A stretch of DNA of 64,000 nucleotides from an uncultured Gammaproteobacteria bacterium (lineage in GTDB: Bacteria; Patescibacteriota; Microgenomatia; UBA10105), in contig CAYPMW010000005.1 in assembly GCA_964412165.1 (NCBI GenBank), forward strand, positions 2,576-66,575. The letters are read 5' to 3'. Shown piece after piece: positions 42,001 to 48,000 of this stretch. The stretch's first letter is position 1. Each line of letters begins with the position of its first letter. A program made the position numbers.

Positions 42001-45000
42001 TGAGCAATGGGTTCATCAAGTTTGGCTATTTCAGCGAGCGGAAAATCACCGGCACTCACTAGTTTGGACAATTCGTCGCGGACTTGAGCGCGCGAATTGA
42101 GGCCGTACAATTTGTCGCTTTCCTCAGGAGTGAGTAAACCCTGGTCTTTTAACTCCTGGATGCTTACTGATAATGCCTCAGGTATAGGAGCTTTTTGGCT
42201 GATATCAGATGCAGCATCCATAGCATGTTCACTTGCTCGTGAAACTGAATTCCAGATTTGAGCTGCAGCTGGAGGTGAAGTGAGAGAGAGATTTTGTGCC
42301 ACTACCTGGTGAAGGGCAGCGGTTTTTTCCACATCATTTAAGAATAACTGAGCTTGAGAAGTAGATGCGGAAGATTTGGTCATATCTTCAGTGAGTGTAC
42401 GCATAGTTTGGGTATAGGCAGAGAGTGCCGCATCCACTCGACTAAATTGTCCGCGTTGACTCAGTGCTCTGGCTTCATTGAGGCGTTCAGTGGCAAACGC
42501 CAGACGTAAAGACCCCTTTTGTACCGGATCAAACGTGAGCGTAAGCTGTGCGTTTTCTGCTAGTGTCTCTAGTGGGTAGAGGAGATTACCTGGAAGCGTA
42601 CCGGGGTTTTGGTTTAAAGTTGCATCGGGAGGAATTTCAGGAGGCGGAAGTTTTTCGAATTCCGAGTAACTTACTCCTAACACTCGTGGTTGGGTATAGT
42701 AGTACGGGCCCCAATCAAAGAAGGCAGTGCGGTTATAGGCAGCGATTGCTTGGGTTGGTGTAGTCAAGAAAATACAGAGGAAAGTGATCCTGGCTATAGA
42801 GCGAACAAATCTGTTTTGTGTGGGCAGTCGCATGATTAGGTATAATTAGTATTAATTAAGTAAAACAGGTTTGTATACGTTCTGTCAAGGGAAATTAGTC
42901 TAGTTATAGTAGAGGAGTGTATTGTCATAGTGCTGTGGAAAAATTCCAGGTCATTCCAGCTGGGCAACTCCAGGTTTGAGAACAACCGCCAGAAGCATTA
43001 CTTTCGTAGCGGCACGAACTATAACAGTAGTGTTGCCCAGCTGGACACATGCTCAATATACATCAATATTTATTGATATATTACTAATTAGCGTACTTCA
43101 AATATTGAATACTTGTCAAGAGAGTATTTGGCATCTGATAGAGGAAAGAATCGTGTTCCCAAAAGTGTGTTTAGAGTGTAAACCACCCCGAAAAGTTCGG
43201 ATATTTGGCGAATGAAATGGAACTAACGCTATGCACCCAAACACCATGAACGGTAATTGGGATTCTGGATTTGGTTGCAGCGGGAGATGCGATCTGAGCT
43301 ATTTTTCGACCAATCGGCAACTGATACGCCGATTTGTCGGAAACAGTTTTGCTGGTATTTTGTTTCCGAACAGAAATTAATCATCCGAGTCATATCACCC
43401 ACATATCGGTAGCTCATGGCGATAATTACTCCCATGATGCAGGTACTTCGAGCGTGATCCGTGGGCATGAGCTCACAGTTTTGCCTCATTCGAGTTTGAT
43501 CTTGGGTAAATCCCACCTGATTTGTGCCGACAGTGACAAAACACTCATTTTGCAGAAGGAAGGGAACGCCTAGACAGAGTTCTGCGACTTTAGCCCAATT
43601 ATGGTTGGTGATAAGAGCGAAATAAGAACTTTGGTAACGGTAGCACAGTTTTTGGTATTGTTCAGACAGTGAGTTACATGGATAATACGGGTCGTTAGCA
43701 CGGACATATTTTCCTGGGTGATCAGTGTTGGTCGAACTTGATGAATTCTCCATAAATACACCACTATAGCAGCGTTCTCGATTATCGATTGAATCAAGCA
43801 CATCACACAGCGCCAATGCTTGAGGTGCTTCCATATCATGGACATACAATGCCGCATGACCGAGGCCGTGGAGACATTCAAAATATATAAGTGGTGAAGT
43901 GTAGTCTTTAAGCTTACCGCACACCTGAGAAAAATCCTTGGTAAGATTGTCTGTTAACGAGAGTTTTTTTTCGTTCAAGTATGCCTCTAGTGTCCCGTGG
44001 TAGCAGCCTCCATGGCACGTTGAGTCGCATTGAGCATACACCTGGGGAACATCTTTTCTCTTGTCATATTCAGCCCGGGATAGATAATGAGTGACTTCGT
44101 GGCAGCGAGCAAACACCTCAGGGTAGGCTTCATTTATTTTAAATAGTGTAAGTGTTTCCTTAAGGCCAAATTCATGTGCAAACAGTTCACCTACCTGTTG
44201 ATAACAATCATCACGGCCACCGATTTTATAACACTCACTCATCTGTTCCCGGACATACCCGCTTTTAGACTGCGTGGAATCGTATGGTTTAAGATTTATA
44301 CTCAAAGGTTTCCGGCCATAGTCGCGGATGAGGTGGTTGATATATTCATGGCAGGTTTTTATAAATGCGTTTGGTACAGAATTGCATAACAGGGGTGATG
44401 CAGATTGCCAACCAGGAGTTTCCTGGAAAATAAACTCTCCGGCAGCTGCCTGGGCGCATTGAGCTATATATTCGTCTTTTTTGAGAAGTTTACATATATC
44501 GAGCACTTTGGTTGCATTTCCAGCTGAATTTCCAGCGGCTAAGAATCCCAATGCATCCACACAACCGGCCACGATTTTTTGATGAGGAGCAGTAATACAA
44601 AGTTCTGAAACTTCAGCAAACGATTTTTTATGTCTTCCCAGAAGTACCATGGGTTGATTACGAGCACACGCAAACTTGAATTCTTCATCGATCTCAGTAC
44701 ACGGAGAGAGCGGAGACTGAGCTGGGTATATTTCGGAAGATGCATCACGCTCAAATTCCATAAACACGCCGTCGTAGCAAAATTCCTTACCTTGAGAAAT
44801 TTCCTTGCATGTATTCAAAGCTGATTTGAGTTCCTTTACCTGGTAAAAACTCGCGATACCATGTCCGATTCCATGGATGCAGCTTGCGTATGGTCCTGAA
44901 CCTGGAGTGCCTACTCCTTCGCATCCTTTTACTGCGTGTGGCAGATCAGCAAGATCTTTCTCAAATGCAGTATCAAGAAACCCGTGAAAACAGCCGAAGG

Positions 45001-48000
45001 CAAAAATACTTGGGCAGTGGTTTATTCCCGAAATACCAAATTCTTTATACAGTAAATGTCCTGTTAGATGGGCTAAATCATGGATACTGCCGCTGGTGCC
45101 TGATTCGCCTTTAAAAGCGGTAAAAAGAAAATCACGGACTGCAAACACTCCTTTATTTGTAGCCATGTTAATAAGTGCAGCCTGTTGTTCTTCATAAGGG
45201 AGCTCTTTGAACTGTGCTGCATCAACTACTCCGGCAATTTCACCTGCAGGCGGAGAGGGAAGACGCCAGAGGATCGCGACCAGTCGAAGCGATAGGTTTT
45301 TAAGAAATTCTACTATTTGTGATACGAGCGATGGGCGCTGCGTATCTGGTAAAACTGAAGCCGATGATCTCGGTATTAAGGAAGAGGGTAATGACGAAGG
45401 ATTTGAGGCAACTGTTTGTTCAGAAACGACCGTAAGCACGCCGCGTTTATGCGGAAATAAGTGATCATGAAATCTCCAGACGCCTGTTTTATGGGGAATA
45501 AAATTCCATGATGAACTCGGCGGAATCGATTTTTTAGGATCAAACTCCGGGTAGAGTTCATGGGTTGGATGGATATTTGAAGCCGGCCAGCGGTCAACGA
45601 TATCTTTGTTGGTAAAAATTACCGTATTGCCGGCTTCAACGGTAATCTCAGACGGTTCAAAACCATTGGGGGTTATTTCTATTACTAGCGTAGCCGAGCG
45701 GGCGGTGATGGGAGAAGGGAAGATTAGCACGGTAATACTAAATAAGAGAAACATGATGAGTTTAACCGAAGTATTCATGAGTTGAACAATCTTATCGAAA
45801 AACTTACTGCGTTGGCAAGTACATTTATCGGCTATTCAAGAAAAATGCAAGTGACTATCTAAAGCCTGTTATCTGCCGAACATGTATAAAAGAAGCGTTT
45901 CCCACCAGCTAAGCTCGCTGGTTGCGCCGTGAGTTTCACCACCTGAAGGAGTGCCGTAACTAGGCGTTTCATAGGTGGGTGTGCCGTATGATGGAGTGCC
46001 ATAGGAGGGAGTGTCGTAAGTAGGTGTGCCGTATGATGGAGTGCCATAACTTGGGGTCCCATACGAGGGAGTTCCATAGGATGGAGTCCCGTAAGGAGTA
46101 TAGTATGTGGGCGTTGGATATGATCCACTTGGTGTGGGATAGGAATATGATCCAGAGGGTGTGGGATAGTAGTAGCTTCCTCCCGGTGTATAGTATGAAG
46201 GCGATGGATAAGCATATCCGCTACCGGGAGTGGGATACGCATAGGTCCCTCCCGGAGTGTAGTATGAGGGTGAAGGGTAGGTGTATCCGCTTTCGGGTGT
46301 CGGATAACTATAAGTGCTGCCTGGTGTCGGGTATGAGTAGCTACTACCGGGAGTGGGATACGTATAACTTCCAGTTGGTGTGTAGTAACCTCCAGTCGGC
46401 GTCGGATAGGTATACCCGGTTCCTCCGCTCGGTGTTGGGTAATAATACACTCCACTCGGCGTATGGTAAGGAGGACTGGTGTAACTACTCCCTGGCGTTG
46501 GGTAGTAGTAAGAAGGAGAATAATAAATTATTGGATTTGGTGGAGTTGGATAGCTGGTTGGTGAGTAATAGTACGGCGTTGAATACTCAGGGGGAGTATA
46601 ATACGTCGGCGAAGTATACGTACTTCCCGGCGGAGGAGTGTAATACGATGGTGTCGTATAATGGGGGGGAGTATAGTAGGTGGGTGTTGTATAAGTACCA
46701 CCAGTATAAGGCGTATAGTATGTGGGAGTGGTGTAGGGTGGAGGGGTTACATAACTCGGAGTCGTATAAGTACTTCCTGTTGGCGGAGTATAATAGTATG
46801 GCGTCATGTATGGGGGCGGAGTGTAGTAGTGCGGGGTGGTATAGTTGCTGCGAACCGGTGGAGTATAGTACAAAGGTGTAGCATACGTAGGTGTGGGATA
46901 TTCACCACTTGGTGTGTAGTAATAGCTTCCCGGCGTATAGTAGGTTGGTGTGTAATATCGGCTTTCTGCGTGGGGTGTATAGTAGGAGGGTGTTGAGTAA
47001 ATGCCCGGAGTATAGTAGTTTGGCGTGGTGTATTCCTGTCCTGGAGGTGGGGTGTAGTACATGGGAGTGACATAAAAGCTGGTAGCCGGTGGGGTGACGT
47101 ATACAAAATCAGTTGGCGGCGTGTAATACGTCCCAGGAACATAGACATCTAGCGGTCGGGGAGCATTAGAATCAAATCCCTGGCACGCATCAGGGTTTTC
47201 TTTACAGTAATCATAACATTCACCTGGAGATTTACAGTTACCCATATCAGGACGCGGCTCATAGTTTACAAGAGTCCCTGGTGTATAGTAAAGTGTTGGT
47301 ACATACGTATCTCCAGGTCTTGGTGCATCAGGGTCAAATCCGCCGCAGGCTCCTGCGTTAGCTTTGCAATAATCATAACATTCACCTGGAGTTTTACAAT
47401 TACCCATATCAGAGCGGGGTTCAAAATACGCGCTTTGGGTCACAGGTACTATTCCGGGGGGAGGATTTTCCTGACACGCATCGCCGTCCCAGTATTTACC
47501 CGTGCCTCCGCAAGCCGCCGCGTCTTGAGTTTTTTCAACTGGGGTACATGAACCGCTTTGACCAAAGAAGTGACCCTCCGGGCACGTTACGGGTACGTAA
47601 GCGCCATTGGCACCAGGAGCGTAGCTGCGGCAATCTTGAGGATTTTGTTCACAGTGGGTACGACATGATTCCTGACTATCACATCCTCCCGGTCCGGTAA
47701 ACTGACCACCGGTTTCAGGTGGCCCATATTCTCGGCAGGTATCAAAATTATTGGGATCACTACAGTAACTTTTACACGTATCCTCTGAGACACATCCTGC
47801 CGGTCCTTCAATCTTAGTACCACCGAGGAGTCCTACAGCATTGGCAAACTGATCACATTTTTGAGTGTTAGTTGGATCGTCACAGAAGCTACTACATGTT
47901 TGAGCTGAATCACAACCTAATACTTCTTGGGCTTGTTCTAAGAATTCTGGATTGTCTGGTTCTTGGACATATCCACCGGTGATTTCCTCTTCTTTAGCAA

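Follow-up and report, generated by a model that had tools for sequence, protein, structure and literature searches.

Paired cysteines, predicted helical repeats and a conserved His/Met/Glu cluster in a previously undescribed module of exported proteins from the Microgenomatia

Three genes on a 64,000-nucleotide stretch of DNA, referred to here as the window, encode the paralogous proteins A, B and C, which share a module rich in Cys and His. The DNA is that of an uncultured bacterium named as a member of the Gammaproteobacteria (GTDB lineage Patescibacteriota, Microgenomatia, UBA10105; assembly GCA_964412165.1, contig CAYPMW010000005.1, positions 2,576 to 66,575 of the forward strand). The module is a real extracytoplasmic domain that was previously undescribed, and the family it defines is a variant of the known disulfide-bridged α/α-repeat architecture, set apart by a His5/Met/Glu signature of unusual strictness and by a dedicated cupredoxin. 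Our preferred explanation, to which we assign a probability of about 0.55, is that the module would form an exported solenoid stapled by disulfides, carry a metal site in its N-terminal half, and act together with a Cys-less cupredoxin in the handling of metal.

Copies, homologs and spread of the module

A hidden Markov model (HMM) made from the four copies recovered exactly four modules, and nothing more, from the six-frame translation of the window (Table 1). The open reading frames (ORFs) lie where the original prediction, a reading of the DNA alone, had placed them, with one module each in A and C and two in B (B1 and B2), and the motif blocks, which had been described as strictly ordered, are indeed collinear in a MAFFT alignment of the four copies. 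All six pairwise comparisons by BLASTP are significant (E 1.5e-15 to 1.8e-68), the lowest of these values belonging to B1 and the module of A, at 36% identity. The HxxxH motifs read as first quoted, and the number of Cys is even in each of the three proteins; the proposed motif patterns are loosely right, with exceptions in C (CVHAAGHS and CHNGAFMEN) and in B1 (SPCT). Two figures had to be corrected: the module extends over about 300-340 residues rather than about 230, and in place of about 10 conserved Cys it has 14 that are invariant (seven pairs), rising to 16-20 in the C and B2 types.

Signal peptides in A and B and a membrane anchor in C mark the proteins as exported, in agreement with the extracellular location first proposed. 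The suspicion that the domain had not been described was likewise borne out: the module has no match in Pfam-A or NCBIfam, whether members from the candidate phyla radiation (CPR) or from outside it are used, profile searches of the PDB were empty at E<=10, and the homologs are named in their sources either "hypothetical" or "cupredoxin domain-containing", with no Pfam domain recorded for the module. Literature searches with the motif strings of the module returned nothing, those on CPR and cupredoxins yielded no more than passing, general references to Cys-rich surface proteins of the CPR, and neither an Rfam search of the whole window nor a tRNA scan gave anything for the module.

At E<=1e-3 the profile of the four modules matched 6431 representative proteins (clusters at 50% identity), and 4842 remain when the threshold is tightened to E<=1e-10. 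The family is wholly unannotated, and at the least the domain merits a definition. Named members within the Microgenomates come from the Blackburnbacteria, Daviesbacteria, Chisholmbacteria, Levybacteria, Gottesmanbacteria and Curtissbacteria, with others in the Parcubacteria, and a genome scan adds the Binatia, Gemmatimonadota, Chloroflexota/Dehalococcoidia, Nitrospirales, Actinomycetota, Thermoanaerobaculia, Woesearchaeota and Nanoarchaeota. Module arrays reach 7-8 copies in some proteins, one protein of 3580 residues has up to eight stretches matching the profile, and further fusions join the module to GH3 (one case), FG-GAP and ConA-like lectin (Laminin_G_3) domains. The family is frequent among ultra-small (CPR and DPANN) microbes and among those of soil, and it is present in multiple copies in ultra-small episymbiotic lineages, where surface proteins are thought to mediate dependence on a host. 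Throughout the Microgenomates, homologs of the C type share 59-70% identity, a level suggestive of a core function; those of the A type are at most 41% identical. B2 is 56% identical to a separate protein of cupredoxin and module at another locus (L006) and has CH..(A/T)H, CYSGVFMEN and DP.(Y/F)PC in common with members from outside the CPR; the architecture of B as a whole, a cupredoxin with two modules (about 825-870 residues), is found at many CPR loci.

Predicted helical repeats and paired cysteines

AlphaFold2 models of paralogs A and C, with predicted local distance difference test (pLDDT) scores of 90.1 and 89.9, are all-helical over the Cys-rich module. In the repeated unit of ~35 residues, which is also the approximate period of the Cys pairs, a short helix terminated by Cys is joined through a loop to a long helix that starts with C-x-x-G. 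In the models every pair has its first Cys at or just past the end of the short helix (in repeat 4, just before the long helix) and its second one to two turns inside the long helix that follows. The internal repeat is also evident from profile self-comparison with hhalign, in which module positions 54-156 align with 160-260 (E 4e-4) and single repeats match one another (R2-R5, P 4.6e-5; R3-R6, 1e-4; R5-R6, 2e-4). The C[YF]HG, CxHGxGH and CYxGxFME blocks represent one equivalent position in repeats 1, 2 and 3. A cap helix with HxxxHxxG followed by seven to eight hairpin repeats, each with a Cys pair, makes the module an α-solenoid, which as predicted would be two-layered. The original prediction had considered a new fold; the α/α-hairpin solenoid is instead a known architecture, here without a close solved relative. 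A Foldseek search of the module against the PDB found nothing, and its only structural neighbours are helical-repeat binders.

HcpB and HcpC of Helicobacter and human COA7 provide the closest analogy. Like the module, they are helix-turn-helix solenoids of ~35-36 residues per unit and are extracytoplasmic or located in the intermembrane space, and they contain one disulfide per repeat, as we propose for the module too. The module differs from them in the spacing of its Cys, in its C-x-x-G signature, in its invariant His/Met/Glu cluster and in its dedicated cupredoxin partner. While the tandem hairpins of ~36 residues that characterize Sel1-like and Hcp solenoids are seen in the models, the hhalign comparisons and the Cys period, the Sel1 repeat profile (PF08238) gave no match at E<=1 for A, B, C or eight non-CPR members, and the top structural matches of the module do not include HcpB, HcpC or COA7. 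Membership in the Sel1/Hcp group was rejected on these two grounds, and the group is kept as an analogue.

In A the Cys pairs are 225/233, 256/268, 292/302, 328/339, 362/374, 397/408 and 432/443, the partners being 8-12 residues apart across the hairpin loop, and all 14 Cys are invariant among 47 A-type sequences. The first pair is mostly kept or lost as a unit: among 658 domain instances both Cys are present in 626, both absent in 29 and split in 3, with losses seen in the CPR, Actinomycetota, Chloroflexota and Thermoanaerobaculia. Because the proteins are exported, the pairs span hairpin loops, the Cys are invariant and their loss is paired, each hairpin is probably stapled by one disulfide, giving about seven per module. 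Where single Cys seem to have been lost, at columns 223 and 278, this is an artefact of alignment register between module subtypes and does not reflect unpaired Cys. MdbA-like oxidoreductases and VKOR, which serve extracytoplasmic disulfide formation, have been reported to be enriched in CPR genomes (bioRxiv 10.1101/335083).

The same observations bear on the His/Cys metal site that was initially envisaged. Fourteen invariant Cys in a helical protein associated with a cupredoxin could be taken for metal ligands that make up either a Cu(I)-thiolate store like that of Csp proteins or sites for Fe-S or Zn. We consider this very improbable, since the Cys are strictly paired over the loop between the C-terminus of one helix and the N-terminus of the next, the two Cys of the first pair are lost together, the proteins are exported, and CxxC or CxxxC motifs are absent along the helical core. 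Cys positions and paired loss point to disulfide staples rather than to ligands.

Conserved cluster, cupredoxin partner and possible function

The 658 domain instances, drawn from the CPR, DPANN and five further phyla, have five His, a Met and a Glu that are nearly invariant (profile numbering, with the residue of A in brackets): H45 (H203, 100%) and H49 (H207, 99.5%) in the cap, H77 (H235, 99.4%) at Cys+2 of repeat 1, H112 (H270, 99.7%) and H116 (H274, 100%) at Cys+2 and Cys+6 of repeat 2, and M152 (M308, 99.4%) and E153 (E309, 98.6%) at Cys+6 and Cys+7 of repeat 3. G115 and G149 are conserved at 100%, and column 148, the Cys+2 position equivalent to H77 and H112, holds D, N or S. Substitutes for M152 are limited to His (2) and Tyr (2), with Leu, Ile or Val never seen. 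Every module of the multi-module giants keeps the cluster, apart from two internal modules of giants with 7-8 modules, found outside the window (P0122 aa 1405-1702 and P0123 aa 984-1278), in which H49R, H77R, H112Y and M152Y are changed together while all Cys, H45, H116 and E153 are kept; these look like degenerate sites filled by Arg and Tyr. Two further domains pair a change of H77 or H49 with E153Q. On helical-wheel geometry the Cys+2 and Cys+6 positions would fall on the helix face opposite the disulfide and make up a contiguous strip over repeats 1-3. Such a pattern would be expected of a metal or cofactor site, and the metal-binding domain of the original prediction is accordingly plausible with regard to the five His, the Met and the Glu, and not with regard to the Cys.

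The two His of the cap had at first been read as the HExxH helix of a zincin-like or inactivated protease. The resemblance consists in a helix carrying a second His four residues after the first, in a Glu following the first His in one copy (HEVTH), and in a superficial likeness of HxxxHxxG to the HExxHxxGxxH of metzincins. In contrast to the invariant catalytic Glu of HExxH, however, position 2 of the motif is L in 155, D in 145, E in 48, Q in 16 and N and S in 13 each of 421 domains, T and G occurring as well, and the four copies of the window have D, D, E and L. The Gly at +3 shows 95% conservation, the residue three positions beyond it is neither His nor Asp (in A: HDLAHVLGSLMY), and no third zinc ligand was found at metzincin or gluzincin spacing; in the model of A this Gly lies inside a continuous predicted helix (residues 199-224). 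The module is all-α, with no α/β catalytic fold, Pfam and NCBIfam gave no peptidase family match, and no zincin is found among its structural matches. A zincin-like metalloprotease, active or inactivated, was rejected on motif variability, fold and searches; we give it next to no credence, and the label should not be propagated.

The N-terminal domains of A and B have the Greek-key β-sandwich fold of cupredoxins, the Pfam Cupredoxin_1 match in B reaching 25.8 bits, under the cut-off of 27. Their motifs are WPASNxHPTH and W-x-[YF]-HDH-L-x-P-H; of 47 sequences, at least 46 keep H64, H67, H98, D99 and H100, and 42 keep H104. The type-1 copper ligand set His-Cys-His-Met is not a feature of these cupredoxins, 82 of 90 domains being without Cys. 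The type-1 Cys is missing from the cupredoxins of both A and B, and that of B has no Cys at all. The best PDB sequence matches for the cupredoxins of A and B are to domain 1 of laccases over the WYHxH motif (E 0.02-1), with GTWRYHDH aligning weakly to this copper-ligand motif. In multicopper oxidases the W-Y-H-x-H motif supplies ligands of the trinuclear cluster at a domain interface. The likeness to domain 1 of these enzymes comprises the cupredoxin fold and the alignment of G-x-W-x-[YF]-H-D-H with that motif; unlike them, the proteins described here have a single cupredoxin with one of the four His motifs (the L2-like W-x-Y-H-D-H), no HCH motif, no type-1 Cys and a helical partner domain, and the full complement of HxH, HxH, HxxHxH and HCH over at least two cupredoxin domains was not found. 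Among 138 family representatives 39 (about 28%) contain the cupredoxin motif, in N-terminal, C-terminal or duplicated form. Fusions are present in the Chloroflexota, Actinomycetota, Thermoanaerobaculia and Woesearchaeota, one Woesearchaeote showing the reverse domain order, and their occurrence in distant phyla, reversed order included, argues for a functional coupling of the cupredoxin to the module.

We suggest the following scenario. The cap and the first three long helices would hold H45, H49, H77, H112, H116 and the M152-E153 pair as a cluster binding one or more metal ions, most likely copper and less likely iron or haem; copper is the first guess in view of the Met, the abundance of His and the partnership with a cupredoxin. 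The module would work with its dedicated Cys-less cupredoxin, either fused to it, as in A and B, or encoded beside it, as for the C type, and by analogy with EfeO/FtrB, in which a cupredoxin is likewise paired at the cell surface with a helical partner that binds metal, metal could be captured, oxidized or handed off there. EfeO and the FtrB cupredoxins belong to FTR1-type iron uptake systems, and EfeO joins its cupredoxin to a C-terminal Peptidase_M75/imelysin domain with an HxxE metal site. Membership in the EfeO family was rejected, as a Pfam scan of 14 members gave no M75/imelysin match and no linkage to EfeU or EfeB was seen in the 84 loci of our gene-neighbourhood comparison; the cupredoxin ligand set also differs, being H64, H67, H98 and H100 here. 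If the cluster is indeed a metal site coupled to a cupredoxin, it would represent a new way to build an extracellular copper or iron centre and would open a way to study how organisms of minimal metabolism acquire metal.

Several observations weigh against a metal site of this kind. By a rough straight-helix estimate H45 and H49 would be 15 Å or more from H77 and H112, a single conserved Met is thin for a Cu(I) site, and the joint substitution of H49, H77, H112 and M152 is effectively one evolutionary event. Two thirds of representatives lack a cupredoxin and still keep the cluster, which makes the site independent of a fused cupredoxin. No metal transporter or chaperone was found in the gene neighbourhoods; a homolog of the iron permease FTR1 occurs in none of the 84 loci, and the FTR1 gene of the window is 22 kb away. 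Finally, both the arrays, with their up to 7-8 modules, and the fusions with GH3, FG-GAP and ConA-like lectin domains are typical of adhesins or binding modules.

These arrays, together with the FG-GAP, Laminin_G_3 and GH3 fusions, would suit a metal-free binding scaffold or adhesin resembling TPR, Sel1 and ARM solenoids, with a peptide, protein or glycan as its ligand, for which the NPF-containing tail of a small membrane protein encoded beside C or a host-cell component would be candidates; the His, Met and Glu would then be ligand contacts or structural residues. That the structural neighbours are solely helical-repeat binders, that the cassette combines the module with a long YYTP-rich surface protein and the small tail-bearing membrane protein, and that the A-type paralogs evolve fast, as surface-interaction proteins do, are all in its favour. 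Nevertheless, the conservation of 98.6-100% across phyla and array modules is far stricter than binding grooves usually show, Met gives way to His or Tyr only, and the fusion recurs specifically with one His-rich cupredoxin subtype. We therefore regard the scaffold as a possible, tentative interpretation.

A more elaborate form of the proposed metal site should be interpreted with greater caution. The cupredoxin, Cys-less and resembling that of multicopper oxidases, and the solenoid might jointly form one composite centre rich in His, to which as many as about ten His would contribute along with Met and Glu and which could be multinuclear copper; the C type, having no cupredoxin, would take part in trans within the cassette. 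We consider this unlikely; were it true, CPR bacteria, DPANN archaea and soil phyla would widely carry on their surfaces a new kind of extracytoplasmic machine, serving as a metallo-oxidoreductase or in metal capture.

Invariant Glu, His and Met could also be of use to an enzyme with catalytic His, Glu or Asp, such as a hydrolase or lyase acting on glycans or the cell wall, which the one GH3 fusion would fit, or to a haem redox protein, for which COA7 is a precedent as a disulfide-tethered α/α-repeat protein that ligates haem through His and Met, has copper chaperones as its targets and takes part in copper delivery (PMC8892353). Against an enzyme, 4-8 catalytic domains in tandem would be unusual, and the module has no similarity to any enzyme family. 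CPR and DPANN organisms generally lack haem synthesis, which speaks against haem, and we find either function quite improbable.

The surface-protein cassette and neighbouring genes

Table 1. Features of the three paralogs and of the genes between them, in window coordinates.
Feature	Position	Strand	Description
Paralog A	35831..37204	-	ORF, 457 aa, 14 Cys; signal peptide, cupredoxin, one module
Paralog A signal peptide	37142..37204	-	
Paralog A cupredoxin	36869..37132	-	
Paralog A module, aa 162-457	35834..36721	-	HMM; HDLAH at 36584..36598
1857-aa secreted protein	37260..42833	-	three DUF5667 domains (Pfam, 3.1e-45); between B and A
Paralog B	43229..45778	-	ORF, 849 aa, 34 Cys; signal peptide, Cys-less cupredoxin, two modules
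Paralog B cupredoxin, aa 30-118	45425..45691	-	WPASNIHPTH ... HDHLFPH; without Cys
B module 1 (B1), aa 191-505	44264..45208	-	A-type; HDLAH at 45068..45082
B module 2 (B2), aa 507-849	43232..44260	-	widespread type, 20 Cys; HEVTH at 44087..44101
848-aa secreted protein	45869..48415	-	4-Cys repeats N-terminal, long YYTP-rich region; present in 26 loci
Small single-pass membrane protein	48412..48753	-	EY.NPFN.E.QYVNPF tail; next to C-type genes in 26 loci
Paralog C	48778..49953	-	ORF, 391 aa, 16 Cys; no cupredoxin
Paralog C N-terminal membrane anchor	49882..49938	-	followed by Pro/Ser linker
Paralog C module, aa 60-388	48790..49776	-	HMM; HLVMH at 49639..49653

In the Microgenomates the genes form a cassette in the order C-type gene, gene for a small transmembrane protein, gene for a protein of ~900 residues, and one or two genes for proteins of cupredoxin and module, an order that recurs in 25 loci or more. 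In the window it runs from 49953 down to 43229, with gene spacings of 24, -4 and 90 nt (the gene for the 848-aa protein overlaps the small gene upstream of it by 4 nt), and the gene for a giant with DUF5667 domains and that for paralog A are appended downstream. Outside the CPR no informative neighbour recurs and synteny is lineage-specific, as with the methylmalonyl-CoA mutase neighbours in the Binatia.

The small membrane protein has no Pfam match, and its gene always directly follows the C-type gene in the 26 related loci, across which the two NPF motifs of its extracytoplasmic tail, EYNNPFNRESQYVNPF, are conserved; this tail could be a peptide ligand for the solenoid. The 848-aa protein, also without a Pfam match, is 50-54% identical to proteins of 901-918 residues at the same position in loci from Daviesbacteria and Blackburnbacteria (L004 and L006) and contains at least five N-terminal repeats of the form C..L.SC..(Y/F)C.DP.N...C as well as a YYTP/PTPSY low-complexity region. 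The 1857-aa protein has no counterpart in the 84 compared loci and lies outside the conserved cassette; its Cys-rich C-terminal third contains repeated CPxG[YF]HWM...GGWCM and C..PSGGCG.NSWYDY..CSC units and a Ser/Thr-rich tail.

The FTR1-family iron permease is encoded at 12927..13760 (+), with no adjacent gene for EfeO, EfeB, P19 or a cupredoxin, and it is conceivable that the proteins of cupredoxin and module are its partners in trans. Two multi-pass membrane proteins, one abutting the cluster (33801..35315, -; no Pfam match) and one more distant (10961..12382, -; PMT_2 match of 25.2 bits, under the Pfam cut-off of 26.1), are possibly glycosyltransferases of the PMT type and might O-glycosylate the surface proteins rich in Ser, Thr, Tyr and Pro. 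On the other side, class A penicillin-binding proteins with transglycosylase and transpeptidase domains are encoded as a tandem pair (55110..57491 and 57569..59896, -), and the protein at 60062..61039 (+), in which a Colicin_V membrane domain is fused to a CAP domain, may belong to the CPR-enriched CAP family of Meheust et al. (10.1101/335083), which would agree with the window deriving from a member of the CPR.

The cluster is flanked by genes for a PAS/GAF histidine kinase (50385..52775, +), divergent from the gene for C, an OmpR-type response regulator (52801..53556, -) and a GAF histidine kinase (31233..32396, +), which are possible regulators. The G+C content at 36000..48000 is 44-49%, compared with 36-41% over most of the window; as this coincides with the genes rich in Pro, Gly, Thr and Cys codons, it is probably a compositional effect and not a sign of foreign DNA.

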